Assembly (NCBI GenBank): GCA_017937705.1
Contig: JAGBDC010000029.1
Span: 27 to 64,026, forward strand
Direction: 5' to 3'
Length of the DNA stretch: 64,000 bases
Source: Alphaproteobacteria bacterium
GTDB taxonomy: Bacteria > Pseudomonadota > Alphaproteobacteria > RF32 > CAG-239
The position numbers were made by a program, and so were the translations under genes. Under the pieces are notes generated by a model, which saw only the letters and a program-made list of their open reading frames with translations, did not search any database and was not told the origin of the DNA. The number at the start of each line of letters is the position of its first letter. The first letter of the stretch is position 1. Positions 32,349 to 48,207 of the stretch are shown here, piece by piece.

Positions 32349-33527
32349 ATGGATATTAAACAAAAAATCAGTAATTTTTTCAGCAGTGAAGTTTCCAGCG
32401 GAATTTTAATGATTTTGTCAATGTTTGCTTCGATCTGTTTAGCAAATAGCCCGTGGCGTGAACCAATATCTCATTTTTGGGAAACGCAATTGTTTTTAGG
32501 TTTGGCAGATATAAAATTTTCCCGCTCTCTGGAGTGGTGGATTAATGATGTTTTGATGGTGTTTTTCTTTTTGCAAATTGGCTTAGAACTAAAAAGAGAA
32601 ATGAAAGAGGGATTTTTGTCAGATGCAAAACAAATCATTGTTCCGGCATTAGCGGCACTCGGAGGGATTGTGTGTCCTGCAATCATTTATGCAATTTTAA
32701 ATAATAATTCTCCTCAGTATATGAATGGCTGGGCCATTCCGACCGCAACCGATATTGCTTTTGCTGTTTGTATTTTAATGTTGGTAGGCAAAAGTGTTCC
32801 GCAGGCTGTAAAAATATTTCTGTTGGCAATTGCAATATTTGATGATTTAGGCGCTATTTTAATTATTGCCTTATTCTATAATCAAGGTGTTTCCGTTGAT
32901 TTGTTAGGCTACGCAAGTTTAACTTGTATTGCATTATATTTCTTGAATAAAATGGAAATAACGAATTTTATTCCCTATTTTATATTAGGAGTTGTTTTGT
33001 GGTATTGTTTCCTAAACGGTGGTATTCATACAACAATATCGGGTGTTGTTGTCGCTATGGCCTATCCGATGAGAGTCCATTTAAGAAAAAGTTCTCCCTT
33101 AGAAGCTTTGTCTCATAAATTAAAACCTTGGGTTGATTTTGTTATTTTACCGGTTTTTGCTTTTGCATCTGCGGGGTTATATTTAGGAGGAATAACATTA
33201 GAAACATTTACTCATACATTGACTTTAGGGATTATATTCGGTTTATTTTTTGGAAAGCAAATAGGTATATTTATGAGTACATGGATGCTTATCAAAATAG
33301 GAATTGCTTCGTTTCCCAAAGATGTTAAATTGGCGGACTTATATGGAGTTTCAGCTATTGCCGGTATAGGTTTTACAATGGCCTTGTTTGTGGGCAAATT
33401 GTCTTTGCCGGAATATATGCAAGGAGAAGTGAGATTAGGAATTTTATGTGGCTCATTACTATCGGCATTATGGGGAGCAGCCATTTTCCAATGGCAAGAA
33501 CATATCAAAAAAAGTCGTCAACAATGA
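32349..33527 (+). CDS. nhaA: Na+/H+ antiporter NhaA
   Basis: WAIPTATDIAFAV and LLAIAIFDDLGAI (the conserved Asp pair). About 12 TM helices. Confidence 0.95.
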   Translation: MDIKQKISNFFSSEVSSGILMILSMFASICLANSPWREPISHFWETQLFLGLADIKFSRSLEWWINDVLMVFFFLQIGLELKREMKEGFLSDAKQIIVPALAALGGIVCPAIIYAILNNNSPQYMNGWAIPTATDIAFAVCILMLVGKSVPQAVKIFLLAIAIFDDLGAILIIALFYNQGVSVDLLGYASLTCIALYFLNKMEITNFIPYFILGVVLWYCFLNGGIHTTISGVVVAMAYPMRVHLRKSSPLEALSHKLKPWVDFVILPVFAFASAGLYLGGITLETFTHTLTLGIIFGLFFGKQIGIFMSTWMLIKIGIASFPKDVKLADLYGVSAIAGIGFTMALFVGKLSLPEYMQGEVRLGILCGSLLSALWGAAIFQWQEHIKKSRQQ

Positions 33528-33569
33528 CGACTTTTGAACTGTGGCTGGAGATGACTTGCAATCCTCGAG
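33525..33569. repeat. att-like direct repeat 1 (distal island border): terminator arm, tRNA-Gln 3' core and a conserved tail
   Basis: TGACGACTTTTGAACTGTGGCTGG matches 42538-42561 except for one base. It is followed by AGATGACTTGCAATCCTCGAG. The hairpin at 33513-33532 doubles as the nhaA terminator. Confidence 0.8.
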
Positions 33570-33603
33570 TAATAGAAGAGACTTTTTTGTTAATTTTATT
33601 ACG

Positions 33604-34278
33604 TTAAAAATAATCAGCCTTTGTCATCGTTGGGTCTTTTTCTACTGTTTTAATGTATTGTTTCATTTCTTTAGAAATAGGAATTTTTAGATTTTTAAGC
33701 TTACGATAAAGCACAGTACCGTGCTTGCAAATATAATATGTTAATTCAATAGTATCATAGTAATAACCAACTTTCTTTACATTCATAATGGCATCAAGTA
33801 ATAATTCTTGAACAAGAGAAATCTGATTTAATGATTGTTTCCTATTAATGTCTAGAGGATTGCAAATTCGTATATTTCCTCTATTTGATTTTCTCACTCC
33901 AACATAAATTGAATCTTCTTTTTTTGTATTATATTCTTTATCTAAAATATGCTTATATCTTAATTCTGTTTCTTTTGAACCACAATAAACAAAGTCATCA
34001 ATCGCATTTTGTTGCTTAAATATATGTGAATTAATATTATTAAGTTTACTTTCAAATTCATAATTACATGTATTAGTATTATTAATTATTTCTCCATAAA
34101 AGGCGTGCTCATTTAATAGCTGCATTTTGCCAAATTCTTCTAATGCAACAACAGAAATATAATAAGCTGTTGAATACGATTTGTTTCTATATAATATCCA
34201 AGAATCATTGTGTAGTTTTATAGCATTTTGGAACGAGAGAATAGCCATCTCTGCTTTTGTTTTATAAGATAATTGCAT
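33604..34278 (-). CDS. AbiV-like abortive-infection protein (tentative)
   Basis: The N-terminal helix pair AILSFQNAIKLHNDSWILYRNKSYSTAYYISVVALEEFGKMQLL matches my recollection of the AbiV family pattern. 224 aa. Confidence 0.55.
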   Translation of the reverse strand: MQLSYKTKAEMAILSFQNAIKLHNDSWILYRNKSYSTAYYISVVALEEFGKMQLLNEHAFYGEIINNTNTCNYEFESKLNNINSHIFKQQNAIDDFVYCGSKETELRYKHILDKEYNTKKEDSIYVGVRKSNRGNIRICNPLDINRKQSLNQISLVQELLLDAIMNVKKVGYYYDTIELTYYICKHGTVLYRKLKNLKIPISKEMKQYIKTVEKDPTMTKADYF

Positions 34279-34287
34279 TAGACACCT

Positions 34288-34461
34288 TTAATTTATGAGA
34301 GAGACGTCAATCAAATGTAAATAACATATATTATAATCATTAGTGTTTAAGGAATACCTAATATTCTCTTTTTTAAAAAACTGTCTCACCCATGAGGGTA
34401 TTCTGTACCTAAAATAATAGGTATGATTTCTGCGTTTTAAATGGTTATATTTTAATGTCAT
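34288..34461 (-). pseudogene. Truncated tyrosine-integrase N-terminus (arm-binding/DUF6538-like segment only)
   Basis: MTLKYNHLKRRNHTYYFRYRIPSWVRQFFKKENIRYSLNTND fits the integrase N-terminal pattern (RR..YYFR.R.P......I..SL.T.D). It then stops after ~57 codons, with no catalytic domain. Lies just inside att-like repeat 2. Confidence 0.55.
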
Positions 34462-34569
34462 TGTGTCACACCTTTGTGTCTCACTTGTGTAACATACCAA
34501 AAAAGTGCTATTTTGAGGTGGTAAAAATAAAAAAAAGTCGTTGAGAAATCAATGACTTATTCAATTTCT

Positions 34570-34597
34570 TGGCTGGAGACGACTTGCAATCCTCGAG
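34570..34597. repeat. att-like direct repeat 2 (pseudo tRNA 3' core plus conserved tail)
   Basis: TGGCTGGAGACGACTTGCAATCCTCGAG, preceded by its own hairpin and T-run (34535-34558). Confidence 0.7.
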
Positions 34598-34614
34598 ATG
34601 AACTCTTGGTGATT

Positions 34615-35070
34615 TTATGATTTCATTATTTCATCCCAAGTATAGGTATTTACTTTCTGTTTTTTAACTTTATGCAACTTTCGAATACCGTAATTTGCAT
34701 TGAGAAGGGCAACATCTAAAGCTACAAGACATTTACGATACATAGGTATAGCACTATCAAAAGAGGGATTATTTTTATATAATTGTTCTAAAAGTGCTTC
34801 AAAAATATCAAGATGGTGTAAGTCTTTTTCATTTAACAAATACATAAATTGAGATTTGTTTTTATTAAACCAATCAACAATTTTTCTAACGCTTTCTTTG
34901 TCAAATTTATAAATAATACAAGCTTCATCCATCTGATGAGCAAGGTCAAATCTTCTAAAACGTAATTCTTGTTTGAATTGAGAATGACTGATTAAGCACT
35001 GTGCGGCAGTAAATATAACGATTGCAATGGCACATATCCATTCAGCATTTTGTTGTAAAAATTGTAACAT
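34615..35070 (-). CDS. Hypothetical single-pass membrane protein
   Basis: 151 aa. TM helix WICAIAIVIFTAAQCLI, then a helical soluble part. 23 nt downstream of the lipoprotein gene on the same strand. Confidence 0.55.
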   Translation of the reverse strand: MLQFLQQNAEWICAIAIVIFTAAQCLISHSQFKQELRFRRFDLAHQMDEACIIYKFDKESVRKIVDWFNKNKSQFMYLLNEKDLHHLDIFEALLEQLYKNNPSFDSAIPMYRKCLVALDVALLNANYGIRKLHKVKKQKVNTYTWDEIMKS

Positions 35071-35093
35071 ATTATTTTCTCTACAGTATGGTT

Positions 35094-35678
35094 TTAAGAT
35101 TCCATAAATTTAGGTAATTTACCGCAATTCTTCTTCAAATTTTTATTGAAATTATCTTCATCATAGACATCTTCACCTTTATGAGCTTTTATTAAAGCTG
35201 TTTTAGCTTCTTGAGCATAGCATTTACAGAATTTTTTATCTTCTTTTACATTAGATGCACGATAATCACTTAAACAGGTATCATATATAACATCTTCAAA
35301 TTCAATTGCTCTTTCATAAAACTCTTCTTCTGTTTTGGGTGAATTTTTATATTCAAAACGTATTACAGGAACAGTTTTTCTAATATCTTCTCTCGTTGTA
35401 TATGTATAAACACCATCAATAACAGCACATTTTTTATTTGGTGATTTAACAATCATGCCATCATAATAGTCAATATTAAGTTGTTTTTCTAGAAAAACAA
35501 TTTGATTCCATACAGAGCACCCTTCACTAAAAGTACATTCATAAGCCAATGCACCTCTATCTAATGCTTGTAAAATTTTAAATTCATTTGTTGATATACA
35601 ATTTTCATTATCACTGAATAAAGTGATGCTAGCACACCCTGATAGAATAAAAGATAAACAGATGATAAATTTTTTCAT
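35094..35678 (-). CDS. Hypothetical Cys-rich lipoprotein
   Basis: Lipobox FILSGC. 194 aa with many Cys residues. RBS AGGAG upstream. Confidence 0.65.
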   Translation of the reverse strand: MKKFIICLSFILSGCASITLFSDNENCISTNEFKILQALDRGALAYECTFSEGCSVWNQIVFLEKQLNIDYYDGMIVKSPNKKCAVIDGVYTYTTREDIRKTVPVIRFEYKNSPKTEEEFYERAIEFEDVIYDTCLSDYRASNVKEDKKFCKCYAQEAKTALIKAHKGEDVYDEDNFNKNLKKNCGKLPKFMES

Positions 35679-35919
35679 TTCAAAACTCCTTTAAATTACT
35701 AATAGTTTATGATGTTAAATTTTTTATTTCAACATAAATTTTTATTCATCTACCAACCTTTCACATAGCTATGTTACAAGTCCAACCACTGCAAATTTTT
35801 ACATAGGTTCATTTTTATGCTCAAAAAGGCTAAAATTTGATAAGTTATTGAAAAATATAGAAGTGAGTTCAAAGATACTGCAAAACTAGCCTTCAAAATA
35901 TATTCATCTTCGAACTAGC

Positions 35920-36001
35920 TTAAGTGCTTGAAAATAAAAGAAAAAGTCGCCATTTCTGACGACTTTTGAACTCTGGCTGGAGTGAGCTTGCGGTTTTCGA
36001 G
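35920..36001. repeat. att-like direct repeat 3 (tRNA-proximal flank, terminator, pseudo 3' core and tail)
   Basis: 35920-35983 aligns with 42501-42564 at 57 of 64 positions by manual alignment. The tail is GAGTGAGCTTGCGGTTTTCGAG. Confidence 0.8.
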
Positions 36002-36022
36002 ATAAAATTTTGGATTTTTATA

Positions 36023-36595
36023 TTAAATTTGATTCTGTTCTATTTTTTGATTTTGTTCCGTAAAATTTATTATTTGTTTTATTATTTTGGCATTGTGTAT
36101 GTTATCCATAACATAAGGAATTTGTACTAATCCACCAATAGCGTAGAAATTTAGCGTGCAATACCCGCATAGTTTTCCTCCTAAAGACCTATATAGTTCG
36201 ATGTTATTAATATCCTTTATATATAATTTATCATAGCTACGATAAAAAAGGCCTTTTTTAACAGTTATATATTCTTCGCAATAAATAGCTTCAGCAAAAC
36301 AAGCATCGAATATATTATTGAAATCTTTAATATATAGAAATAATGGTATTAAAAATATGCTATACATATATTGTTTATCAAATATGCTATCTGTAAGTTT
36401 TTCTCCAAGCCAATTACAACAGTAATAGCAAATCACTAATATAAATAAAAATAATAAAAAATGAGCAATTCTTTCAATACATTGAAGTTTATTTAATTGT
36501 ATGGTCTGTCCCTTGTTTGTTTCAAAAAAGCAATCAAGTTTTTTAGGTTTGTTCAAATTTTTTATTTTAGATACATATTCAGAAATCATAGACAT
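36023..36595 (-). CDS. Membrane protein with bacterial PH (bPH_2/YdbS-like) domain
   Basis: Two TM helices, then ITVKKGLFYRSYDKLYIKDINNIELYRSLGGKLCGYCTLNFYAIGG, typical of membrane-flanked PH domains. Confidence 0.65.
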   Translation of the reverse strand: MSMISEYVSKIKNLNKPKKLDCFFETNKGQTIQLNKLQCIERIAHFLLFLFILVICYYCCNWLGEKLTDSIFDKQYMYSIFLIPLFLYIKDFNNIFDACFAEAIYCEEYITVKKGLFYRSYDKLYIKDINNIELYRSLGGKLCGYCTLNFYAIGGLVQIPYVMDNIHNAKIIKQIINFTEQNQKIEQNQI

Positions 36596-36681
36596 TTTCT
36601 TACCTTTATTGTTAACTACACTGATTATTTAGGTAAAAAACTTATAAAGCGCAAGAGATTTGTATAAAAATAAATTTTAAC

Positions 36682-36708
36682 TTTTGGGTGTTAGGAATCC
36701 GAGGTTAA
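36682..36708. repeat. Conserved intergenic box 1, copy A
   Basis: TTTTGGGTGTTAGGAATCCGAGGTTAA. Near-identical to 40118-40145. Confidence 0.7.
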
Positions 36709-36742
36709 AGTAACTTTTATTTTTAAATAACAAAAGTTTTTC

Positions 36743-36790
36743 TGCTCTATATGAGCAATTTTGGTTTTGATATATGTTTGATTATAAAAA
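36743..36790. repeat. Conserved intergenic box 2, copy A
   Basis: TGCTCTATATGAGCAATTTTGGTTTTGATATATGTTTGATTATAAAAA. About 80% identical to 41277-41325 by eye. Confidence 0.65.
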
Positions 36791-36929
36791 TTAAAATCCA
36801 ACATTATGGGTGTTTTATAATTAATTAAAAAAATATAAATTGTGTATAATTAAAAATTTTTTATTAACTTTACACATCTGTGTAATATTATCTTCTCAAA
36901 AGTGTAAAATATTTGAAGGAAAGATTAAT

Positions 36930-38747
36930 ATGGATAACATAGATAAAAAAATATTAAAGATTCATAATTATATATACGCCAATGATGGACTAAGTAATGC
37001 AGAAACGCTAACCGAATTTCTAAAAATATTTTATTGTAAGATATTAGATGAAAATGATGGTAATATGTTTTTATTACTAACAAATGAAGCTGATATTCTA
37101 AGACGAGTTAACAATTTATATAAATCTTTCCAAACTAAGCTAAATAATGTTGTGAAAACGAGTGAAAAAATAAATTTAAAAGATAGAACAATAATCTTTA
37201 TAATATCTGAACTGAGAGATATAAATATAAAAAACATATCCTCAGATATAAAAGGACATATAATGCAAAAGATTATTGATCGTTCTTATAGAGAAAGTAG
37301 AGGACAATTTTTCACACCAGCACCAGTGGTTGATTTTATAGTTAAAATGATCGCCCCTAAAAAGAATGAACTTGGCTCAGATCCTGCTTCTGGAACAGGT
37401 GGATTTTTATTTGCTGCTTTGGATTATATATCAAATACGAAGAAAATAACGATTGAAGATATAAAAAACATGTATTTTTCTGATATTAGTAAAAATTTGA
37501 TACAATTAATCCTTATGAGAATGATGTTTGAATACTCTATTGATGATTTCAACTATTATACTGAAGATAGTATAGCTAAAGACGTAACACCTAAATATGA
37601 TTTTGTAATCACAAATCCTCCTTTTGGCACACAAGGAAAAGTTGATGATCCTAAAATACTAAGTAAATATGATCTTTCATATGATGGAAAAAAATACTTA
37701 TCATCTCAAGTACCTGATATTTTATTTGTTGAACAAATCATTAAAAGCTTGAAATATGGTGGACGAGCAGCTGTTGTATTACCTGATGGAGATTTTGAAA
37801 ATCCATCCTTACAGTATTTTAGAGAATTTCTTGTTAATAATGTAAAAATAGATGCTATTGTGTCGCTACCGGATGGAACATTTATTCCATATGGTACAGG
37901 TGTAAAATCTAGCATAATATTTTTCACAAAGCAAAATAGTACTTATTTGAACAAAATAAAAAATGAAAATTATTCAATTTTTTATGCACGTATACATAAA
38001 TTAGGTTATACCTTTTCCAAACACTCTAAAAGTGTATATACCAAAGAAGGAGCGATAGATGAAGATTATTCTCAGGTTTTAGATGCTTATAAAAAAGGTA
38101 ATTATAATGAGAATAGTTATCTTGTTTCTATAAATGAAATTGAAAGAAATAATTATATATTAGCAGAACATTTTTATTCCCCTGTTTATAGTCAATTAAT
38201 TAATTCTATTAAACAAAATAAATATGCCATGTTAAAAGATTTAGTATCTTTCCGCAACTCAAAGGAAAAAATTAATATTGACGAAAAGTATACATACATA
38301 GAGATAGGAGATGTTAGCCCATATATTAATGAAATCACAAATAGTACTAGCTTATTAGGGGATGAATTACCTAGCAGAGCGAGTTATATCGTGCACACAG
38401 GAGATGTTATTGTGGCCGTAGCAGGAAATGCTATAGGTACAGAAAAACATGCTAAAGCAATTGTATCAGATAAGTATGATGGGTGTATATGTACTAATGG
38501 ATTTATAGTATTGTCGCCTATTAAAGTTTCAGCATATTTTATATTATCTTTTCTTAATAGTGAGTATTTTCTGAAACAAGTCTTGAAATACAAATACGGT
38601 ACAGCAATCCCTTGTATATCAAAAGAAGATTTAGGCAATGTTGTTGTTCCAATACCTGATGATGAAAAAATGAGAGAAATAGAAAATAGAATAAAGAGAG
38701 CTTATAATCTTAGAAAAGAGGCTAATGAACTCTTATATGCAGTTTAG
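36930..38747 (+). CDS. N6-adenine DNA methyltransferase fused to an HsdS-like target-recognition domain
   Basis: Motif I DPASGTGGFL and motif IV NPPFG. The C-terminal ~200 aa resemble one type I S-subunit TRD (LKDLVSFRNSKEKIN...YIEIGDV...). ATG at 36930 with GAAGGA upstream. Confidence 0.85.
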   Translation: MDNIDKKILKIHNYIYANDGLSNAETLTEFLKIFYCKILDENDGNMFLLLTNEADILRRVNNLYKSFQTKLNNVVKTSEKINLKDRTIIFIISELRDINIKNISSDIKGHIMQKIIDRSYRESRGQFFTPAPVVDFIVKMIAPKKNELGSDPASGTGGFLFAALDYISNTKKITIEDIKNMYFSDISKNLIQLILMRMMFEYSIDDFNYYTEDSIAKDVTPKYDFVITNPPFGTQGKVDDPKILSKYDLSYDGKKYLSSQVPDILFVEQIIKSLKYGGRAAVVLPDGDFENPSLQYFREFLVNNVKIDAIVSLPDGTFIPYGTGVKSSIIFFTKQNSTYLNKIKNENYSIFYARIHKLGYTFSKHSKSVYTKEGAIDEDYSQVLDAYKKGNYNENSYLVSINEIERNNYILAEHFYSPVYSQLINSIKQNKYAMLKDLVSFRNSKEKINIDEKYTYIEIGDVSPYINEITNSTSLLGDELPSRASYIVHTGDVIVAVAGNAIGTEKHAKAIVSDKYDGCICTNGFIVLSPIKVSAYFILSFLNSEYFLKQVLKYKYGTAIPCISKEDLGNVVVPIPDDEKMREIENRIKRAYNLRKEANELLYAV

Positions 38748-39718
38748 CCTTCTCTATAATCAATTTGACTTTCATCATATTCTACAGTTTTAGGATGAGT
38801 TTCTTCTATACACTCATTTAGATCAAGATACCATGGATGTCTTATAGATAAATTATCTTTTATTCCTGGAATTATAATATCAATAGTGTAATTCTGATAT
38901 AAATGATTAGGTGAAGTTGGGGAATGAGAGATTATATCAGGATTGACAAAGACAAATAAATGTTCTCCTAGTCTTTGGTACAAATCAACAGCTAGAATAG
39001 AAAAATCAGAGGATATGGGAGCAGCTTGTTTAATACCAGTGGCGGTATCAGTACGATTACTTGGTTTATGTGTTTGTAATATTTTATATAATCCCGTTCC
39101 ATTTCTAAAAGCGGTTTCTGTTAGTAGATTTTCGTCACAGTTATATACAAATTTTTTGAGTTCACTTACTGAATGAAAAAATGGCGACAAATCAACATAA
39201 TCAGGACCAGGAAAATCTGTGTTCCAATTAAAGTCAGGAAAAGTTTTCTGAGGATTATTCTTTTCCCATTTAGCTTTTGCTGTTAAGTATGTAGATTTAC
39301 CCTTATTATATATCTTTTGTTTATCAATATCGATGAATTTCTTTAGAGTATTGAAGGCTTGATCTTTAGATAGTTTTTTAAGGTGTGTATCTTCTGTTTT
39401 AGCTCCTCTGAATTCAGAATTAGTTTTTAACCCTTTGCACTCTACAACCCAATAAGTTGTATCTCCTTTTTTGTTTATTAGAAAATCGCCTTTATACCCT
39501 ATTTTCTTCTCGTCAAATCCACCAGCTGGTTTTTCCTTTATTCGCATTACCTCATAGCCTTTTTGTGTTAAATATTTGACTAATAATAATTCAGAAATTG
39601 CTCCATGAATGTACCCTAAAGCACTGGGGCTCATTTTTAGAGCATTAAAAAACATTTTTTCATCAACAGCAAAGTGTTTTTTCAACCACAAAGATAAATT
39701 TTCATTCCCGTTTTGCAT
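38744..39718 (-). CDS. Putative PD-(D/E)xK restriction endonuclease partner of the methyltransferase
   Basis: GYKGDFLINKKGDTTYWVVECKGLK gives a D...E-x-K motif. Convergent with the MTase, with stop codons overlapping by 4 nt. Start chosen at MQNGNE, preceded by AAGGAGA. Confidence 0.6.
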   Translation of the reverse strand: MQNGNENLSLWLKKHFAVDEKMFFNALKMSPSALGYIHGAISELLLVKYLTQKGYEVMRIKEKPAGGFDEKKIGYKGDFLINKKGDTTYWVVECKGLKTNSEFRGAKTEDTHLKKLSKDQAFNTLKKFIDIDKQKIYNKGKSTYLTAKAKWEKNNPQKTFPDFNWNTDFPGPDYVDLSPFFHSVSELKKFVYNCDENLLTETAFRNGTGLYKILQTHKPSNRTDTATGIKQAAPISSDFSILAVDLYQRLGEHLFVFVNPDIISHSPTSPNHLYQNYTIDIIIPGIKDNLSIRHPWYLDLNECIEETHPKTVEYDESQIDYREG

Positions 39719-39952
39719 GCTATTCTCCTTAAACGTCATTTTAAATACAGAGATAAGTAGAGTAAGAAGTTTTTTCATGAAAGAAAAATCCTTTTGTTAC
39801 AAAATCTTCATTATGATATAATAATGTATTTAATAAATCGTAAAATGACTCTTCAATATCTAAACTTCAAAAAATCTCTCCTCTCTTCAATAGCATAAAA
39901 AACAGGATCAAACTTCTTAACTCATTGATTGTGTTAGATTCTTGATAAAATA

Positions 39953-40003
39953 AGTTCGAAGATTGTCCCGTTTTATGCTTTTTTCATATCAAACATTCGA
40001 ACT
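39953..40003. repeat. Copy of the tRNA-proximal flank (GTTCGAA...TTCGAAC inverted-repeat segment)
   Basis: AGTTCGAAGATTGTCCCGT...AACATTCGAAC aligns with 42447-42496 at roughly three-quarters identity by eye. Confidence 0.6.
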
Positions 40004-40061
40004 CGCCGAAAGCCTTGGAAACAAAAGAAAAAAGCCACCTCAAAAGGTGGCTTATCTGCTC

Positions 40062-40089
40062 TGGCTGGAGTGAGCTTGCAATTCTCGAG
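40062..40089. repeat. att-like direct repeat 4 (pseudo tRNA 3' core plus tail)
   Basis: TGGCTGGAGTGAGCTTGCAATTCTCGAG, preceded by the hairpin AAGCCACC-tcaaaa-GGTGGCTT. The tail continues ATAAAATTTTGG as at 36002. Confidence 0.75.
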
Positions 40090-40117
40090 ATAAAATTTTG
40101 GTTTTTGAGCCTGCTAA

Positions 40118-40145
40118 CTTTGGGGTGCTAGGAATCCGAGGTTAA
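40118..40145. repeat. Conserved intergenic box 1, copy B
   Basis: CTTTGGGGTGCTAGGAATCCGAGGTTAA. Confidence 0.7.
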
Positions 40146-40230
40146 TTTAAAATCAGTTAAACACTTGCGTTTAAAGAAATGAATCCCTAAATAGATTATA
40201 TACTTTATGAACTTTTTGAAAGAATAAAAA

Positions 40231-41268
40231 ATGACACAAAATACCAGTGCAAAAACATCTGATGAAATCTATATAAAAACAAATAAAAACAATGGGTTAA
40301 CATTAAAATCCGCTGCTGTTGAAATCACCCCATCCCAACTATCATTATCTGGAATTACAGAAGTTGATGCATACAAAGAAATTGATGGAATTGAAATGGG
40401 GGTTCTTGATGATGGAACGGCCTTTCTTGGTCAAAGAGGTTTGGCCGCTTTCTGTGATTTAGAAAACAATGGAGCACTCTCTATACTATCTAAGGAATGG
40501 GAAGAAGAACGCGATACAACCACAAAAGAACGTTTAATATTTATCAGAAATTACTTGTATGATAAAGGATATAAGCAAAATTCATTATTTATTGAGTTAA
40601 AGAAGAATAATACAATTATATATGCTTATCCTGATATCGTTTGCATGGCAATTTTGGAATATTATGCTTTTGAAACTAAGGAACCGAAGGAAAGAGCCAA
40701 GAAAAACTTCAGACTTCTTGCAAGAAATAGCTTTAGAGAATTTATTTATCAGGCAGTTGGATACAATCCAGAGGAAAGAGAATTAAATCGTTGGAAATAC
40801 TTTTTAGATAGAATTGATGCCAATTATGACAATCCACCTTCTGGATATTTCAGCATATTTCAAGAAATGGTAAAATATACACATTTCCTTATAAAAAATA
40901 GATTTACTGTTAATGATAAAACAATTCCGGATTTAAGTGTAGGAAAATTTTGGGGAACGTATTGGACAGACAATAAATTAAATGCAAAATTTGGTGAAAG
41001 GGTTCCATATATGCATAATTACCCTAATTATTATCCGCAGTCATCTTCTAACCCTCAACATCCTTGGGCATATCCAAATGAATCTCTAGCAGAGTTTAGA
41101 AAATGGCTAGAAAATACTTATTTTGTCTCTAAATTTCCAAATTATCTAAAGGAAAAGGCTAAAAAAGAGCAGATTAGTGTTCAGACTAAAGAAAAGATTT
41201 TGATGGCACTAAATAATATGATTGATATAGAAAATAAAACAAAACTGTTGCCTTCTAAAGATAAGTAA
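40231..41268 (+). CDS. Hypothetical protein, 345 aa (N-terminal segment weakly reminiscent of phage P63C/antirepressor-type proteins)
   Basis: Clean ORF. GVLDDGTAFLGQRGLAAFCD resembles the P63C-type N-terminal motif from memory. No catalytic motif recognised. Confidence 0.65.
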   Translation: MTQNTSAKTSDEIYIKTNKNNGLTLKSAAVEITPSQLSLSGITEVDAYKEIDGIEMGVLDDGTAFLGQRGLAAFCDLENNGALSILSKEWEEERDTTTKERLIFIRNYLYDKGYKQNSLFIELKKNNTIIYAYPDIVCMAILEYYAFETKEPKERAKKNFRLLARNSFREFIYQAVGYNPEERELNRWKYFLDRIDANYDNPPSGYFSIFQEMVKYTHFLIKNRFTVNDKTIPDLSVGKFWGTYWTDNKLNAKFGERVPYMHNYPNYYPQSSSNPQHPWAYPNESLAEFRKWLENTYFVSKFPNYLKEKAKKEQISVQTKEKILMALNNMIDIENKTKLLPSKDK

Positions 41269-41276
41269 TTTTATTT

Positions 41277-41325
41277 TGCTCTATACATATGAATTTGGTT
41301 TTGATATAGGTTTTATTAGAAAAAA
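41277..41325. repeat. Conserved intergenic box 2, copy B
   Basis: TGCTCTATACATATGAATTTGGTTTTGATATAGGTTTTATTAGAAAAA. Confidence 0.65.
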
Positions 41326-41442
41326 TAGATTTGGCTATTATAGGGTAATTTTTGATAAGTTAATAATCTTATCAAATTTATTGTTTTTAAACCATTGATG
41401 TTTTATTCTGCCACTGGGTTTATTTTAAGAGAGTAGGTTGTC

Positions 41443-42369
41443 ATGGCACTTAATTTAAGTAAAACAGTTGTAGATATATTAAAACATAATCCTGATAAGT
41501 ATTTTACTGCAAGGCAATTAGCAGAATGGGTTTGGAATAATAAAAAAGATGAATGTTTAGCCAAGATGGAAAGAAGTAAAGCTACTGTTGTACCTATAGA
41601 TACAGAAGATGCTTTACTTAATCAACTAGTAGCTGAAATTGGTGCATATAAGAGGCGTATTTTGGCATTATCATCTAATGTGAAAATTACAGCAGAACGC
41701 CCGAGAAAGTATTATTATTCTGAAAAGACAGAGGCTCAAGAAATAAAAGATGCAGAGAAAAGCTCGAGAACAAACGGACAACCAGAACACGATTCTTATC
41801 CTCGTTTATGTGAATACCTATACAATGAACTAAATATATATCCTAAAAGAATTGATGAGAGAAAATCCTCAAATTCAAAAGGAAGTAACGGTAATAAATG
41901 GTTGCACCCTGATATTGTAGGCTTAAAAAATCTTTCAGATGGTTGGGATAATGATGTTATTTCTTGCGCAGGTAAACATGCTTTTAACAAGACTTCACTG
42001 TGGTCATTTGAAGTGAAAATAAAAATTAATTTATCAAATGTTAGAGAATATTTTTTCCAAACTGTTTCAAATTCTAGTTGGGCGAATTTTTCCTATCTTG
42101 TGGCTCAAACAATTGATGAAAAAGCGATGGATGAGCTACGTATATTATGTGGTGGTCATAATATAGGTTTAATCCAGCTAAATTGTGAAAATCCAACAGA
42201 AAGTCAAATATTAATTCCTGCAATAGAGAAAAAAGAACTTGATTGGGATATGATTGACCGTATTACTAAAGAAAATCCTGATTTTAAGGATTTTGTAAAT
42301 TTAATTACAGAATTTTATCAAACAGGAAAAATCAAACCGAGAGATTGGGATATTCCAGAAGAAAGATAA
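41443..42369 (+). CDS. Hypothetical wHTH (HARE-HTH/Mrr_N-like) protein with a PD-(D/E)xK-like C-terminal domain
   Basis: The N-terminus VVDILKHNPDKYFTARQLAEWVW looks like a winged helix. The C-terminus KWLHPDIVG...SLWSFEVKIK...FFQTVSNSSWANFSYLV gives a D...E-x-K...Q pattern. Confidence 0.65.
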   Translation: MALNLSKTVVDILKHNPDKYFTARQLAEWVWNNKKDECLAKMERSKATVVPIDTEDALLNQLVAEIGAYKRRILALSSNVKITAERPRKYYYSEKTEAQEIKDAEKSSRTNGQPEHDSYPRLCEYLYNELNIYPKRIDERKSSNSKGSNGNKWLHPDIVGLKNLSDGWDNDVISCAGKHAFNKTSLWSFEVKIKINLSNVREYFFQTVSNSSWANFSYLVAQTIDEKAMDELRILCGGHNIGLIQLNCENPTESQILIPAIEKKELDWDMIDRITKENPDFKDFVNLITEFYQTGKIKPRDWDIPEER

Positions 42370-42446
42370 TTTTATTAAATTTTCTCCTATGTTATGGATA
42401 TCGAAAATTCCTAATACCTTGATTTTTTTATCTTCTCTATAAAATT

Positions 42447-42496
42447 AGTTCGAAGATTATCCGGTGTAAGGCATATTTCATACCGAACATTCGAAC
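42447..42496. repeat. tRNA-proximal flank, reference copy (GTTCGAA...TTCGAAC inverted repeat)
   Basis: AGTTCGAAGATTATCCGGTGTAAGGCATATTTCATACCGAACATTCGAAC. Partly repeated at 39953-40003 and 35905-35920. Confidence 0.6.
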
Positions 42497-42500
42497 CAAA

Positions 42501-42561
42501 TTAAGTGCTTGATATAAAAAGAAAAAATCGCCATTTCTGACGATTTTTGAACTGTGGCTGG
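42501..42561. repeat. att-like direct repeat 5 (authentic: terminator plus 3' end of the intact tRNA-Gln)
   Basis: TTAAGTGCTTGATATAAAAAGAAAAAATCGCCATTTCTGACGATTTTTGAACTGTGGCTGG. The hairpin and T-run read on the minus strand directly after the tRNA. Confidence 0.85.
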
Positions 42562-42629
42562 GGTGGCTGGATTCGAACCAACGAATGACGATACCAAAAA
42601 CCGTTGCCTTACCACTTGGCGACACCCCA
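42555..42629 (-). tRNA. tRNA-Gln (anticodon UUG), CCA encoded
   Basis: The reverse complement TGGGGTGTCGCCAAGTGGTAAGGCAACGGTTTTTGGTATCGTCATTCGTTGGTTCGAATCCAGCCACCCCAGCCA folds as a cloverleaf. Acceptor is TGGGGTG/CACCCCA, the anticodon stem is ACGGT/ATCGT with loop TTTTGGT, and the T-arm is GTTGG-TTCGAAT-CCAGC. Confidence 0.9.
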
Positions 42630-42767: not shown

Positions 42768-43610
42768 ATGAAGTTATATCAACTGGTTGCATTAATGTCG
42801 ATTTATCCTGTTATGGTACAAGCTTATGACACTTCGGGGCTGTATATAAATTTCAAACGTGTCGGTTTTGACCTCGGGACGGCCAAAGTTAGCAATTATC
42901 GAGAATATGAAGGTTCGCCGAATACCGAAATTAACCAAAACACGCAGGGCGTTTTGAAGGGCGTTTTTGATTTTGCTTTTGAGTATGAGCAACCTAAATA
43001 TCGTTGGGATAATAGTGTTTATGCCGAATATGGAAAGAGCAAAATTCATGGCAATCCCGGACGTAAATCACATACGGAAAATGCGGATAAATTGTTGTTG
43101 GCTACGGATTACACTTATAAAATTTGGCATTTTAACAACAATTCGGACATGGGACCCTATGCCAATTTAGCGTATCAAACCGAATTTACGAGCGATTCCG
43201 GAGCAAAAAGACAAAAAATTGCACGTTCTTTTCAAGGTATAAAACTTATTAACGGCACTAAAAATATTACTGATTTTCATTTAGCGATGGTAGAAGAGGT
43301 TGATTTTACATATAAAGATTCTAATACAAAAACCGCGTGGGAAATAGGATTTACATATAAATATCCGTTTAATGATACATATCGTTTTGAATTTGAAACA
43401 TATTATCGTGATTATTTATCATATTCCAGAGATAATAATTCTGATTTTCGCTATGAAGTTTTTGCAACAGCAAAGCTCAATATCAAAACCGGAAAAGATT
43501 TTTTCGTAGAACCATATATGTCATATTTTAGGGCCAAAGATCGAGAAAACAAAAAGGCCGGTTCTAATGTCGTTTTCGGTATTGCAGTTGCATACAGCGA
43601 AATATTTTAA
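42768..43610 (+). CDS. Outer-membrane beta-barrel protein (family uncertain)
   Basis: Signal peptide (ALMSIYPVMVQA), alternating aromatic beta-strand pattern, and C-terminal ...AYSEIF. Confidence 0.7.
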   Translation: MKLYQLVALMSIYPVMVQAYDTSGLYINFKRVGFDLGTAKVSNYREYEGSPNTEINQNTQGVLKGVFDFAFEYEQPKYRWDNSVYAEYGKSKIHGNPGRKSHTENADKLLLATDYTYKIWHFNNNSDMGPYANLAYQTEFTSDSGAKRQKIARSFQGIKLINGTKNITDFHLAMVEEVDFTYKDSNTKTAWEIGFTYKYPFNDTYRFEFETYYRDYLSYSRDNNSDFRYEVFATAKLNIKTGKDFFVEPYMSYFRAKDRENKKAGSNVVFGIAVAYSEIF

Positions 43611-43667: not shown

Positions 43668-44432
43668 ATGAAAGTTACTGTTTTAGGTTCGGGTTCGGCT
43701 TATGGTTGTCCTATGGTATTTAATAAATGGCGAAATGCAAATCCGTCTAATCCTAAAAATATTCGCAGTCGTGCATCTGTTCTTATTGAAACGCAGGGCA
43801 AATATTTTTTGATAGACGCCGGTCCGGAGTTTAGGCAACAAATCAATGATAATAATATACCGGATATAAATGCTGTTTTTATAACTCACGGACACTACGA
43901 CCATATTGCCGGTATTCCCGAATTGCCGAGAGCATCGAAAAACATAGGACACCCGATAGAAATATGGGCAAGCCAAGAAACAATGAACGAATTGAAATCA
44001 ACATTTTATTATTTATTTAATGGAGAAGAACCAGAAGGTGTCGGATTGCAGTGGAAAATATTGCCTAATGACGGAGTTTTTGAAAGTTGCGGAGTTAGAT
44101 TTGAAACATTTCAAGTTCCTCACCATAGTTTAAGATGTTCCGCTTTTCGTTGTGAAGATTTTGTGTATGTTGCTGATTGGCAAGATTTGCCCGAACAGGC
44201 TTTGGGGCATTTGCAAGATTTAGACGTTTTATTAATTGAGTGTAATAATGGTCTTTATCCCGAAGTGAACGGACATGGCGATTTAGAAAAAATCAAACAT
44301 TTTACTTCAATTATAAAACCTCAAAAAACTATTTTAACTCATTTGTCAGCTCGTGTCGATTTCGAAGAAACAAAACAGGAGCTTCCCACATCATTTGAAT
44401 TAGCATTCGACGGCATGATAGTAAATGTTTAG
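43668..44432 (+). CDS. MBL-fold metallo-hydrolase (PhnP/RNase Z-like)
   Basis: ITHGHYDH (the HxHxDH motif). 254 aa. Confidence 0.8.
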   Translation: MKVTVLGSGSAYGCPMVFNKWRNANPSNPKNIRSRASVLIETQGKYFLIDAGPEFRQQINDNNIPDINAVFITHGHYDHIAGIPELPRASKNIGHPIEIWASQETMNELKSTFYYLFNGEEPEGVGLQWKILPNDGVFESCGVRFETFQVPHHSLRCSAFRCEDFVYVADWQDLPEQALGHLQDLDVLLIECNNGLYPEVNGHGDLEKIKHFTSIIKPQKTILTHLSARVDFEETKQELPTSFELAFDGMIVNV

Positions 44433-44450: not shown

Positions 44451-44813
44451 CTAAAAAAATATTCCGCCAAATTTTACAGCTAAAAACTCTAATATAATCG
44501 GGGATATAATCCACCAATAAGCCCATTTAGATTTTTTATATAAACACCAAAAAGTTACAAATAAGGATATTAGATAAATTGTTATACATATATGACATAA
44601 AAAAATAAAAGTTTCTTTTGAGTGAAGATACCATTCCGGAGCATCAGGTTCTATAATTTTAACATAATTTCCGAGCTTTATTTGTTCTATAACATTAAAT
44701 TCATATTTAATAAAATAAAAATATAGAGCAATAAATGAGGTAAAAAATACATATTTTATTATGACTGTCTTTTTGTTCCAAAGAAACATAAAAATCTTTT
44801 TTACGTTGTTCAT
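44451..44813 (-). CDS. Small 3-TM membrane protein, paralog 1 (candidate immunity)
   Basis: Start taken at MNNVKKIFMFLWNKKT, preceded by GGAGG. Near-identical central region to the next gene. Confidence 0.6.
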   Translation of the reverse strand: MNNVKKIFMFLWNKKTVIIKYVFFTSFIALYFYFIKYEFNVIEQIKLGNYVKIIEPDAPEWYLHSKETFIFLCHICITIYLISLFVTFWCLYKKSKWAYWWIISPIILEFLAVKFGGIFF

Positions 44814-45223
44814 ATAAAATCCTCCAACGTGTTTAGATGATATATTTAAAACAAATTTAGGAATATATTTCCAAATTTTACGACTAAATATTTTATTAAG
44901 AATGGAGATATAATCCACCAATAAGCCCATTTAGATTTTTTGTACAAACACCAAAAAGTTACAAATAAGGATATTAGATAAATTGTTATACATATATGAC
45001 ATAAAAAAATAAAAGTTTCTTTTGAGTGAAGGTACCATTCTGGAGCGTCAGGTTCTATAATTTTAACATAATTTCCGAGTTTTGTTTGTTCTATAACATT
45101 AAAATTGTGTCTGATTAAAGCCATAAATAGAGCGATGAATAGAGCAAAAAATACATATTTTATTATGGTAGTCTTTTTGTTCCAAAGAAACATAAAAATC
45201 TTTTTTACGTTGTTCATATAAAA
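44503..45223. repeat. Tandem duplication, period about 403 bp (units 44503-44819 and 44906-45223)
   Basis: Long stretches are identical between the two units, e.g. GATATAATCCACCAATAAGCCCATTTAGATTTTTT and AAAAAGTTACAAATAAGGATATTAGATAAATTGTTATACATATATGACATAAAAAAATAAAAGTTTCTTTTGAGTGAAG. Confidence 0.85.
44846..45217 (-). CDS. Small 3-TM membrane protein, paralog 2 (candidate immunity)
   Basis: Same MNNVKKIFMFLWNKKT start, preceded by AGAGG. Immediately downstream of the Tlde1-like gene. Confidence 0.6.
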   Translation of the reverse strand: MNNVKKIFMFLWNKKTTIIKYVFFALFIALFMALIRHNFNVIEQTKLGNYVKIIEPDAPEWYLHSKETFIFLCHICITIYLISLFVTFWCLYKKSKWAYWWIISPFLIKYLVVKFGNIFLNLF

Positions 45224-45312
45224 CCTCTGGTTGTTTTTTCTGTTGTTATAATTACATAAAATAGAATATAAAAAAGAACTTGGCAAGAAAAATTTGCCAA
45301 GTTCTTATTTTT

Positions 45313-46017
45313 TTACCAACCTTTAGGATATTTTACTTTCAATGGTAAATCAGTATTATAATTTTTGAAATCATTATAAAAACTATCGTTGCCGGAAGTT
45401 AAATCAATGCAACCGCCAGAACCTAAAGTTGTTCCTCCATGAACATACATACTGTCACGACCATAAGTATTTGTGTTAGGCAAAGGTTGAATCGGAACTC
45501 TACTTTTTCCCCAACTGTTAGGTTTTTCAAACCAATAGTTGTCAGTTTTTATTGGAGCATTCAATCTTTGTATTAAAGGAATATTATCATAATCCTGTCC
45601 GCTGTCTTTCTTTAAAACATAATCGCCTTCCGGTATTGGTCCTGCATCTTTCACATTTGTATGTTGTGATCCTTGTAATTTAGGGTGTCCTGACATAGCT
45701 TTCCAATATTTAACCGGCTTTCCGTTTTGTTGCCAACTTAGATTTTGACCATCAAATAACAGTTCTCCCGGTTGTGAATAATCCGGTTTGGTAGAAGTAA
45801 CATTTTTCTGTTGGTTTATTCTATTATGAGCATTAAAACGATCATAGTAACTATATTTATTAGAAGCCGGATTTAAGCTTTGTTGTCTCTCCTTTTCTCT
45901 GGCTCGCATCATGTTATATTCAATTTCATCTCGAAGAGAGAATTTTGAATGATCAATTCCAAATTCATCAATTTGAGAATTTTCTTTTAATTTGTATAAT
46001 GTCATTTTTTTCTCCAT
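45313..46017 (-). CDS. Tlde1/DUF2778-like L,D-transpeptidase-fold toxin (tentative)
   Basis: WKAMSGHP, GPIPEGDYVL and MYVHGGTTLGSGGCIDL match the Tlde1 pattern (A.SG, GPIP.G.Y, H...GS.GCI). Confidence 0.65.
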   Translation of the reverse strand: MEKKMTLYKLKENSQIDEFGIDHSKFSLRDEIEYNMMRAREKERQQSLNPASNKYSYYDRFNAHNRINQQKNVTSTKPDYSQPGELLFDGQNLSWQQNGKPVKYWKAMSGHPKLQGSQHTNVKDAGPIPEGDYVLKKDSGQDYDNIPLIQRLNAPIKTDNYWFEKPNSWGKSRVPIQPLPNTNTYGRDSMYVHGGTTLGSGGCIDLTSGNDSFYNDFKNYNTDLPLKVKYPKGW

Positions 46018-46047
46018 AAAAAAAAGACTGCATTCGAAAATGCAGTC
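46018..46047 (-). terminator. Rho-independent terminator after the RTX-like fragment
   Basis: The minus strand reads GACTGCAT-tttcga-ATGCAGTC followed by tttttttt. Confidence 0.6.
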
Positions 46048-46307
46048 ATAAATTGATGTAAAAAAAAGAACTAATAACGTTCTTCATAAAATAAATAGGG
46101 AATTGATGCACCAATTCCCTATTATAGATTTTTCTAGCATATTTTTTGTCGGATGTAAATACATTTTATGTAACTCTGTGGATAATGTTTCTCAAATATA
46201 AAAAATCTTGAAGACTGTAATAACAATTTGGGGAATAAATTTTTATATTTTAATCAGACGAGGACGAGATATTATTGAAACATCATATAGTTATTTGGTG
46301 GTAATGA

Positions 46308-47276: not shown

Positions 47277-47341
47277 TTCTGTGTTTCCTTTCGTATAAAA
47301 AATATAATTTTTTACAAATCCAGTTTACAAAGAACGAATAT

Positions 47342-48202
47342 TTAGTTACCTTTTTCCGATTCTGTATATGTCAATCCTTTGTTATTACGTAATGTTTCAT
47401 CTGCACCATAAAGCTTTAAAAGTTTAATGGTATCAGTGTTATTTGAAAAATTTGCAACAAACAAAGGTGTACTGCCTTTGTAATCTCTGATATTTGGGTT
47501 TGCTCCTTTTTCTAATAATTTTTTTAATAAAAACAAAGACTCATTTGGATATGCCATAGCGGTAATATGTAAAGGAGTAATTCCACCTGTTTTTTTATTA
47601 ATATCAGCACCATTTTGAAGTAAAATATCAATTATTCTTGCATAATATGTTTCTAATATTTTTTCTTCTTTTTCTATATCTGATATTACTTTTTCTTTCA
47701 TCCTATTCCGTTCTTCTGGGGATGTTTCTTTACACTTTTTACTTATTCCATCAATGTTACATATATTGTCAGAATCGTCTAATTGGTAATCTATTTCATC
47801 TGCAAGTAGCATTTTAAATTCGTTCATTTTTCTGGGGAGTAAAACAACAGTAGTAAGCGGTGATATTCTACATGTAGTTAAATTGACATCAGCTCCTGCT
47901 TCTATTAACAAATTTATCTTTTTTATGGTGTTTTCAGGGGGGACACCTTTATTTATTATAAGACCATTAATAGATGCAGTTAAAAGAGTGGCGCAGCCGT
48001 AATCAGCATTAACATCAACTCCGATTTTTTTTACTAAAAAGTCTAATTCTTCAGGTGTGCCATGCAATGCAATTTTTTTTATATAACTATCATCTGTCAT
48101 TTTATTATAAAGAAAAAATCCCTCTGCATAATTCTTAAACATGATATAAAATAAACCACTAATGATTATTAACCATATAATTATATGTTTTTTTATCATC
48201 AT
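47342..48202 (-). CDS. Ankyrin-repeat protein with N-terminal TM/signal anchor
   Basis: ANK repeats (GITPLHITAMAY...LLEKGANPNIRDYKGSTPLFVA...LLKLYGAD) and N-terminal HIIIWLIIISGLFYIMF. Confidence 0.8.
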   Translation of the reverse strand: MMIKKHIIIWLIIISGLFYIMFKNYAEGFFLYNKMTDDSYIKKIALHGTPEELDFLVKKIGVDVNADYGCATLLTASINGLIINKGVPPENTIKKINLLIEAGADVNLTTCRISPLTTVVLLPRKMNEFKMLLADEIDYQLDDSDNICNIDGISKKCKETSPEERNRMKEKVISDIEKEEKILETYYARIIDILLQNGADINKKTGGITPLHITAMAYPNESLFLLKKLLEKGANPNIRDYKGSTPLFVANFSNNTDTIKLLKLYGADETLRNNKGLTYTESEKGN

Positions 48203-48207
48203 TACCT

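Follow-up and report, generated by a model that had tools for sequence, protein, structure and literature searches.

A tRNA-Gln-anchored array of small, mostly defense-carrying modules in an uncultured gut alphaproteobacterium

The 64-kb window analyzed here (64,000 nucleotides of contig JAGBDC010000029.1, from an uncultured alphaproteobacterium) contains an island at 33.5–42.6 kb, between the antiporter gene nhaA and a gene for tRNA-Gln(UUG), in which the 3′ end of the tRNA gene recurs. What assembled this island, and by what route do its segments come and go? We conclude that it is a tRNA-anchored accretion array of decayed integrative elements with mostly defense cargo, a reading to which we assign a probability of about 0.75. 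Direct data support it: the repeats, variation among strains, one precise insertion, recombinases encoded at the same site in relatives, and covariation within conserved module ends. The order of events in the array we infer.

The tRNA-Gln(UUG) gene is the sole tRNA gene that ARAGORN finds in the window; it is intact and confirmed by the Rfam tRNA model (56.7 bits). Its last seven nucleotides (CCAGCCA) run from the final 3 nt of the acceptor stem through the discriminator base to an encoded CCA, and read TGGCTGG on the plus strand at 42555–42561 (tRNA-end copy TGGCTGGGG). This core occurs in five copies on the same strand, at 33542, 34570, 35974, and 40062 and at the tRNA end; AG comes next at each of the first four, and a conserved tail follows the core in these four of the five copies. 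The extended core motif TGGCTGGAG is found five times in the window against 0.11 expected, and none of 100 shuffles reached five, so the recurrence is beyond chance. The fifth copy of this longer motif, at 17398, is the only one outside the island and is unrelated, lying within the RNase P RNA gene (class A, bacterial; 17309–17699, 276 bits, between mraW and lpxC).

Similarity extends upstream of the cores. The 24-mer TGACGAyTTTTGAACTsTGGCTGG is present at 33525, 35957, and 42538, and a self-repeat search of the window returned matches of 76 nt (87% identity, 35909 versus 42490), 48 nt (92%, 35971 versus 40059), and 93 nt (77%, 39910 versus 42404). Positions 35920–35983 and 42501–42564 are identical at 57 of 64 sites, and 42447–42496 and 39953–40002 at 41 of 50. 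A terminator-like hairpin lies directly before all five cores (coordinates in Table 1); the region has eight terminator-like sites, five of them before cores, with 3.1 expected. The tails fall into two subtypes, type 1 at junctions 1 and 2 and type 2 at junctions 3 and 4. The GC content of the island is 0.288 (0.27–0.31 in the modules), compared with 0.35 in both flanks. The inserts are thus delimited by same-orientation direct repeats of the 3′ end of an intact target tRNA gene. An earlier note on this DNA, made from the sequence alone, had described the intact tRNA, the five direct core copies, the recurring 24-mer and tRNA-proximal flank, the two tail subtypes, the hairpin before each core, and modules richer in AT than their flanks, and had suggested a self-comparison as a check; all of this is borne out, and its manual count of 57 of 64 is exact.

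Matches to the window come from metagenome contigs of uncultured, low-GC Alphaproteobacteria of the gut, and strains were compared on such contigs (Logan; L numbers denote contigs or loci) with nhaA or the DUF3078-family gene as anchor. In L005, whose flank is 97.6% identical in nucleotide sequence to that of the window, and in L006 (88%), the cargo after nhaA is entirely different from the window's and the kind of junction is the same. L005 has a different restriction-modification module followed by an element with a DUF234 ATPase, and in L006 other genes and a type IIG-like enzyme precede this DUF234 element, which is followed by the tRNA. A 100% identical DUF3078 protein is encoded on 22 contigs, among which at least five different modules lie beside the tRNA. 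A scan of metagenome contigs with the 3′ half of the tRNA yielded 68 loci with an identical tRNA half and many different downstream flanks; grouped by the flank upstream of the tRNA, they form three main species-level clusters, within each of which the downstream flank is highly variable. In sample DRR768634, modules 1 and 2 lie beside nhaA (L068) and another module lies at the tRNA (L055), an arrangement that fits the newest arrival being nearest the tRNA. Short contigs end or start exactly at junctions (L059 and L060 at 42558, L002 at 35970; L062 spans 35953–42547), L002 and L062 coming from the same sample and breaking at 35970 and 35953. The window's own repeats have no exact 31-mer in common that could cause such breaks, which are as expected from strain mixtures branching at the junctions.

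A precise insertion was observed between two contigs of one species, L056 and L052, whose identity is 98.3% on the side before the core and 97.5% from there on. Relative to L056, L052 contains a further 5,651 bp (4135–9785) exactly at the tRNA 3′ end, with the 9-bp repeat TCTGGCTGG at both junctions. The tRNA-proximal end of the insert holds a 5′-truncated gene for a large serine recombinase (LSR), whose frame enters the tRNA and ends in ...SGWGGWIRTNE* (asterisks denote stops). The start of the insert, a left tail and the DUF234 ATPase gene, has three different left neighbors in L005, L006, and L052 and is 96.9–99.3% identical across them, though the chromosomal flank of L006 is only ~88% identical to the window's. 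This presence/absence polymorphism with precise repeat boundaries concerns a related element within one species, not a module of the window. Repeated site-specific integration at the tRNA 3′ end, which the earlier note had proposed, is supported by the strain variation, by the L056/L052 insertion, and by the integrases of relatives; the differing module sets that it had suggested looking for were found (L005, L006, and the tRNA-adjacent modules above).

Two unrelated kinds of recombinase are encoded at the same core in relatives. Full-length integrases were located on the metagenome contigs scanned with the tRNA 3′ half, followed by local phmmer searches; a protein-database search with the 57-residue integrase fragment of module 1 gave no match (no shared words). 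L098 (615 aa) and L126 (665 aa) encode tyrosine integrases with DUF6538 and Phage_integrase domains that adjoin the tRNA and read away from it. In module 1, the open reading frame (ORF) at 34288–34500 matches Pfam DUF6538, an N-terminal domain of tyrosine integrases (E 1.8e-12), and its placement and orientation relative to the core are those of the intact genes in L098 and L126. Integrative elements of the LSR class are recognized by a protein of ~450–700 aa with Resolvase and Recombinase domains beside an attachment (att) site, a feature present in L142, L113, and L130; the window would have only presumed 3′ remnants. The LSR of L142 (548 aa; L142:1284–2930) reads into the tRNA, and the chromosomal flank of L142 is 86.8% identical to the window's. 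Open frames of 556–563 codons read into the tRNA in L115, L120, and L131, and L113 and L130 have a second LSR type at the core. The same LSR 3′ end also adjoins tRNA-Gln(CUG) in L013, L019, and L021.

Several further recombinase-related ORFs were noted at or near this site. A 194-aa protein consisting of the tyrosine-recombinase catalytic domain alone (Phage_integrase, 1.5e-21), with an adjacent ORF of 126/127 aa, recurs in island variants (L005:17419–18003; L141, oriented 2849–3433) and is truncated in L052 (7300–7527) and L055 (1183–1308). L104 (oriented 4523–6336) has a ~1.66-kb minimal tyrosine-integrase element between the tRNA and an existing recombinase-less module with a right end of the kind called type a; it consists of a single 487-aa ORF with a DUF6538 N-terminus and no returned catalytic-domain match, has ATTAGCA repeats, and has TGGCTGA as the core of its distal junction. 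In another species, a tRNA-adjacent module (L078, oriented 9363–10207; also L086 and L102) has a type-a right end next to a small ORF that matches REP_ORF2-G2P (2.5e-7), a family of rolling-circle replication proteins. In L044, tRNA-Ala is adjoined by an ORF for a DUF6538 integrase, which was set aside because this high-GC relative is uninformative for the tRNA-Gln site. Scans of viral contigs gave no match to the tail motif, five chance matches to the right-end motif (GC 0.42–0.57, each covering ~27 nt of the profile), and two matches to the tRNA half on contigs of GC 0.42, none of these belonging to the window's family; L071, the one of the two that was examined, has a serine recombinase ORF overlapping its tRNA.

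The LSR genes have an unusual relationship to their target. Every LSR frame that crosses the att core into the antisense strand of tRNA-Gln(UUG) ends in the residues given above for L052 (L142, L052:8739–9821, L115, L120, and L131), and in L019 a related ORF (7297–8268), probably truncated, crosses tRNA-Gln(CUG). Reconstruction of the L052 element's attP predicts a frame that instead goes on for 40 codons (QEDAGIKEKSAQLYNVLVNHYSEILAMKDQVKLIKSLLDA*). The LSR attP may lie inside the enzyme's own ORF, and integration would exchange a C-terminus of ~40 residues for eight tRNA-antisense residues, which could serve as a switch of directionality or dosage. A codon-position test of the left end as the alternative C-terminus, on two sequences, gave differences of 15/13/18 and no support for coding constraint.

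The right ends of the modules may be related to these recombinases. Modules whose cargo is unrelated share a conserved stretch of ~165–300 nt ahead of each core; for example, the module 2 right end (35667–35967) is 92% identical to L052 2039–2340, where the cargo differs, and the right-end profile matches modules 2 and 4 with E-values of 2e-35 and 5.8e-36. Read in the frame that gives GWGGWIRTNE on the tRNA, recombinase-less modules from other species have right ends that align colinearly with the final ~55 codons of intact LSRs, though with interrupting stops (ELVKPLEIKGFQEIES...LEPQNIIKKQEVGPQNLTSVQSGW versus ELVKLLKNKDS*ES...YEP*NILKKQEARPKNLTSTRLGW). A DNA profile of LSR 3′ ends matches recombinase-less right ends in L127 (1.9e-15), the L143 type (5e-8), and L125 (4e-5). 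By these alignments, the recombinase-less right ends of the family appear to derive from the 3′ end of an LSR gene. A tblastn search for LSR remnants in the window matched the tRNA-antisense tail alone; an alignment of right ends forms a continuum from the LSR 3′ ends that includes the window's copies, which are tied in through intermediates. For modules 2–4, LSR ancestry would thus follow by a transitive link. The earlier note had taken the integrase N-terminus at 34288–34461 as the only recombinase trace in the island; its identification as an integrase is upheld by the DUF6538 match, but it is probably not alone, given the likely LSR derivation of these right ends.

Recombinase-less ends also contain an inverted repeat, hairpin 1, with a stem of 7–12 bp and a 25–35-nt spacer between its two arms (GTTCGAAGAT / ATCTTCGAAC; GTTCGAAAAT / ATTTTCGAAC; AGTCCGAA / TTCGGACT; GTCCGTGTAA / TTACACGGAC; GGTTCGTAT / ATACGAACC). 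Across 21 distinct right ends, 98% of the cells of the 7-bp stem are paired, and double changes occur in 12 cells, a number that none of 500 shuffles reached (shuffles give 2.7); the counts are inflated by the shared ancestry of the sequences. Sliding the partners by a single column abolishes the signal. Compensatory changes have kept hairpin 1 in place. Among the five right ends of intact LSRs that were examined, none has a comparable inverted repeat, and two of the closest matches in them are short repeats at different positions. Hairpin 1 could act as a DNA hairpin, an RNA hairpin, or paired protein sites. In L103 (oriented 427–510) and L112 (oriented 196–283), hairpin 1 is separated from the terminator (hairpin 2) by an ~85-nt insert (AACTTCTCTTAGCTTTGCGAGGGTTTACCCAAAGCAAAGGTTAG...) that bears its own inverted repeat and is possibly a miniature mobile element. 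What appears to be new here is the apparent descent of the right ends from LSR 3′ ends and an inverted repeat kept by compensatory changes.

These observations suggest how the array would have formed. The target would be the extreme 3′ end of tRNA-Gln(UUG), TGGCTGG on the plus strand, with up to 9 bp (TCTGGCTGG) shared. Small integrative elements would recombine serially at this core by means of tyrosine or serine integrases, each supplying its own core and terminator hairpin, so that the tRNA would stay intact and terminated, and each new arrival would shove older ones toward nhaA. Two unrelated lineages would serve the site: DUF6538 tyrosine integrases of 615–665 aa, of which module 1 would be a decayed example, and LSRs of ~550 aa, encoded tRNA-proximally and reading into the tRNA to end on its antisense strand. 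The recombinase genes would then decay, leaving modules of 1–4 kb, mostly with defense genes. Modules 2–4 would have lost the recombinase gene and kept ~165–300 nt of the right end, derived from the LSR 3′ end with covarying hairpin 1 and terminator hairpin 2, and ~35–150 nt of the left end, consisting of the tail and a promoter-like block. Turnover would proceed by new integration at the tRNA, deletion, and homologous recombination between conserved ends. Junction 1 is the distal, attR-like end of the array, and the hairpin that ends nhaA presumably flanked the tRNA 3′ end originally, as the B side of attB.

Several results weigh against the accretion of decayed integrative elements. The identity at the junctions is 7–9 bp only, short for an att site. 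There is no intact recombinase among the Pfam-annotated genes at ~22–54 kb and 18 further ORFs in the outer parts of the window; elements of this kind are expected to carry one each, and the window has only the 57-codon DUF6538 fragment. The LSR 3′-end profile has no direct match to the window's own right ends (E > 10), and the covariation counts are inflated as described. No circular or excised form was seen. The empty site that the earlier note had suggested searching for, with nhaA convergent on tRNA-Gln, was not found for the whole island: L007, the only relative in which nhaA is directly convergent on a tRNA, has the same layout of hairpin then tRNA, but the tRNA is the CUG isoacceptor and the far flank differs, so it was rejected. 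Finally, a junction type without any core occurs at ~359 in L056 and ~2341 in L052, the left homology breakpoint between these two contigs falls inside hairpin 1, and left-tail (P′) and right-end (P) types are assorted among modules. Because of these core-less junctions, the breakpoint in hairpin 1, and the assorted end types, homologous recombination and deletion must also shape the arrays, and homologous recombination between conserved ends contributes to the shuffling of modules.

Could homologous recombination after DNA uptake then suffice by itself, with the junctions being conserved terminators or regulatory DNA whose likeness to att sites is incidental? The breakpoint within the conserved right end, the core-less junctions, the assortment of end types, and the lack of a recombinase among the window genes surveyed would all suit such an account. 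It is made improbable by the precision of the 5,651-bp insertion, whose 9-bp direct repeat coincides with the tRNA 3′ end, by integrase genes and fragments that abut the core in canonical orientation, and by the same 7-nt core bounding elements with unrelated flanks in many species. An integron-like array, in which folded single strands recombine at attC-like hairpins, is very improbable. Small modules with a structured inverted repeat near one end and mainly defense cargo recall such arrays, but there is no intI and no attI, hairpin 1 (7–12-bp stem, 25–35-nt loop) lacks the R′′-L′′/L′-R′ architecture as well as the GTTRRRY box, genes of both orientations occur with their own putative promoters, the junction core is a tRNA 3′ end, and the tyrosine and serine integrases of relatives at the site are of non-integron type.

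An active cassette system is a likelier competitor than these, though still an unlikely one. Here the recombinase-less modules would be mini-elements with functional ends, mobilized in trans by LSRs or tyrosine integrases of autonomous elements present elsewhere in the same cell or in the population. Cassettes of 1–4 kb, mostly with defense genes, would be captured, stacked, and exchanged at tRNA-Gln in an integron-like economy on a tRNA 3′ end, and the ends would form a working platform for recombination and expression, made up of the LSR-derived hairpin, the tRNA-completing terminator, and the left promoter block. The relationship would resemble that of cis-mobilizable elements (CIMEs) to integrative and conjugative elements (ICEs), or of cassettes to an integron integrase. 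Consistent with such a system, modules of unrelated cargo from three or more species clusters share conserved ends; near-identical copies of hairpin 2 are present in the window and in L078, whose flank has no blastn match to the window's right flank; hairpin 1 is kept by compensatory changes and absent from the intact-LSR right ends examined; the type-a P side resembles the native nhaA flank (TTTTGAACTG plus TGGCTGG); and in sister genomes this core serves autonomous elements with an LSR or a tyrosine integrase. However, none of ~140 loci contained an intact LSR whose end is of type a, and since type-a P half-sites are unlike those of LSR-bearing type-b ends, the observed LSRs may not recognize type-a ends. 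In addition, neither an excised circle nor a precise gain or loss of a recombinase-less module was seen, and some boundaries are off the core. We prefer the accretion of decayed integrative elements.

Table 1. Features of the island and its immediate flanks (window coordinates; strand left empty where none applies).
Feature	Position	Strand	Description
nhaA (Na+/H+ antiporter)	32349–33527	+	Pfam Na_H_antiport_1 (precomputed); chromosomal gene, island side away from tRNA
Terminator hairpin ending nhaA	33510–33535		Bidirectional; perfect 11-bp stem
Junction 1	33542–33569	+	Core 33542–33548, type-1 tail AGATGACTTGCAATCCTCGAG
Module 1	33549–34569		1,021 bp, GC 0.27; AbiV gene and truncated tyrosine-integrase N-terminus
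AbiV gene, module 1	33604–34278	-	HEPN_AbiV 5.4e-16; TIGR04498 6e-15, above cut-off; PADLOC AbiV
Tyrosine-integrase N-terminal fragment, module 1	34288–34461	-	57 codons; points away from junction 2
Junction 2	34535–34597	+	Hairpin 34535–34558, core 34570–34576, type-1 tail AGACGACTTGCAATCCTCGAG
Module 2	34577–35973		1,397 bp; two ORFs and conserved right end (~35670–35973)
151-aa membrane-anchored ORF, module 2	34615–35070	-	No family match
194-aa lipoprotein-like ORF, module 2	35094–35678	-	No family match
Module 2 right end			Hairpin 1 arms 35867–35876 / 35906–35915, one mismatch; hairpin 2 35942–35967
Junction 3	35974–36013	+	Core 35974–35980, type-2 tail AGTGAGCTTGCGGTTTTCGAGATAAAATTTTGG
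Module 3	35981–40061		4,081 bp
bPH-domain membrane protein, module 3	36023–36595	-	
Left-end/promoter block, module 3	36674–36813		Conserved
N6-adenine methylase fused to specificity domain, module 3	36930–38747	+	N6_Mtase 3.7e-37; Methylase_S 1.6e-7
344-aa ORF, module 3	38744–39778	-	No family match; putative nuclease
Module 3 right end	39910–40061		Hairpin 1 39953–40003; hairpin 2 40032–40053
Junction 4	40062–40101	+	Core 40062–40068, type-2 tail AGTGAGCTTGCAATTCTCGAGATAAAATTTTGG
Module 4	40069–42554		2,486 bp; left-end block 40108–40234
BstA, module 4	40231–41268	+	PADLOC 2.5e-109; Pfam BstA_C (precomputed)
308-aa ORF, module 4	41443–42369	+	No family match
Module 4 right end	42404–42554		Hairpin 1 42447–42496; hairpin 2 42523–42548
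tRNA-Gln(UUG)	42555–42629	-	Fifth core copy and integration target
DUF3078-family gene	42768–43610	+	Conserved chromosomal flank, 5′ side of tRNA; anchor for strain comparison

The nhaA gene itself is kept at 62–99% identity in 43 related alphaproteobacterial metagenome-assembled genome loci. Cargo was annotated with Pfam, PADLOC, NCBIfam, and PHROGs (Table 1). Defense-like cargo is present in three of the four modules: AbiV in module 1, the methylase fusion in module 3, and BstA in module 4. The two genes of module 2 have no match in any of the four resources, and three more ORFs lack a family match, so the earlier note's view that all cargo looks defense-like is borne out in part. The methylase fusion is assigned by PADLOC to type I/II methylases, with partial matches to MADS2/MADS5 under their cut-offs. 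By eye, the 344-aa ORF of module 3 is a candidate nuclease with a GDF...ECK motif, and the 308-aa ORF of module 4 has a PD-(D/E)xK-like motif (HPDIVG...FEVK). Rfam models returned nothing in the island beyond the tRNA and a sub-threshold ctRNA match on one terminator hairpin.

Near the left ends of modules lies a block of ~140 nt (TAACTTTGGGGTGCTAGGAATCCGAGGTTAA..., then promoter-like TTGATATA...), upstream of cargo genes that read rightward. It occurs in the window at 36674–36813, 40108–40234, and 41274–41345, in L005 at 11231–11373, and in L091. The copy at 36674–36813 recurs at 40108–40234 and just past the first junction of L005, in each case in the block's usual place ~50 nt after a junction. 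That the block in module 3 normally sits in such a place suggests that this module is two modules whose internal junction has been lost. Module 3 may be composite.

Outside the island, a second low-GC stretch (0.276) lies to the right of the tRNA at 44451–49500. It encodes a Tlde1-domain protein (possibly a type VI secretion effector), SPM-domain and ankyrin-repeat proteins, and paralogous small membrane ORFs (44451–44930 and 44846–45286), and its gene content varies among the conspecific contigs L051, L052, L053, and L057. Beside the DUF3078-family gene, a metallo-beta-lactamase-fold protein (43668–44432) matches the anti-Pycsar Apyc1 family in precomputed Pfam annotation; since every strain variant keeps this gene, it probably belongs to the core genome. 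In the left part of the window, a Zeta-toxin/AAA_33-like ORF (2334–3140) lies amid housekeeping genes.

Among described systems, the closest working analogue is the ssrA islands of Dehalococcoides, with CIME/ICE accretion and tycheposon islands also close. The Dehalococcoides islands lie in tandem downstream of one small-RNA gene, are bounded by short direct repeats of its 3′ end, have a serine recombinase of ~540 aa next to attL, and are strain-specific in content; about half lack the integration module and were proposed to be cis-mobilizable (PMC3146451). The family is marked by a DsiB/DsiA integration module and an ssrA target. The array described here likewise has a tandem stack, 3′-end repeats, a serine recombinase at the site in relatives, members without integration genes, and strain-specific content. 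It differs in its target (a tRNA rather than tmRNA), its repeat (7–9 bp rather than 20 bp), its units (1–4-kb modules rather than islands of ~10–20 kb), and its cargo (anti-phage defense rather than dehalogenases). It also lacks the six-gene integration module, has a second, tyrosine recombinase family acting on the same core, and has an LSR ORF that enters the target gene.

Like CIMEs, which are att-flanked, lack recombination and transfer genes, and lie in tandem with or derive from autonomous elements of the same site (PMC5704250), modules 2–4 are att-flanked and have no recombination or transfer genes. Unlike in CIME/ICE systems, no conjugation or mobilization genes were seen in the autonomous relatives, and the hosts belong to uncultured Alphaproteobacteria of the gut, not to the streptococci. 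The tycheposon islands of Prochlorococcus (10.1101/2020.12.28.424599), to which the earlier note had compared this locus, are similarly tRNA-anchored; partial tRNA copies lie between their elements, older elements are displaced inward by newer ones, and there are integrase fragments and degenerate elements. The present array resembles them in function alone: the repeat here is the last 7 nt of the tRNA, not ~40 nt, host and ecology differ, and the hallmark recombinase and primase/helicase replication module was found neither in the window nor in the conspecific variants examined, so membership was rejected. Membership among integrons was also rejected, as there is no IntI and the junctions consist of a tRNA 3′ core and a terminator.

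The locus also resembles classical tRNA-targeting islands, with their Islander signature, in which the element regenerates an intact tRNA gene, a displaced 3′ fragment marks the far end, and tandem arrays are known (PMC4383910). Islander requires an integrase for each island and considers tyrosine integrases only, and its 2014 description states that no serine integrase was then known to use a tRNA gene as its target (PMC4383910). Tools of this type would miss the present array, because they need one integrase per island and that of the tyrosine kind. Outside the Islander scope, serine recombinases are found here at tRNA-Gln(UUG) and, in the three loci above, at tRNA-Gln(CUG). Relative to the 2014 statement, tRNA genes would join the targets of large serine recombinases.

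The mobile elements and phage defenses of this lineage of uncultured gut Alphaproteobacteria are essentially undescribed. Pairs of serine and tyrosine integrases with att sites that share a 7–9-bp tRNA core are possible genetic tools for these organisms. If the cassettes are mobilizable, they would represent a new way to build cassette arrays. The locus indicates how a streamlined, low-GC genome can keep a fast-changing stock of defense genes at one safe site with no need of a recombinase in each cell.

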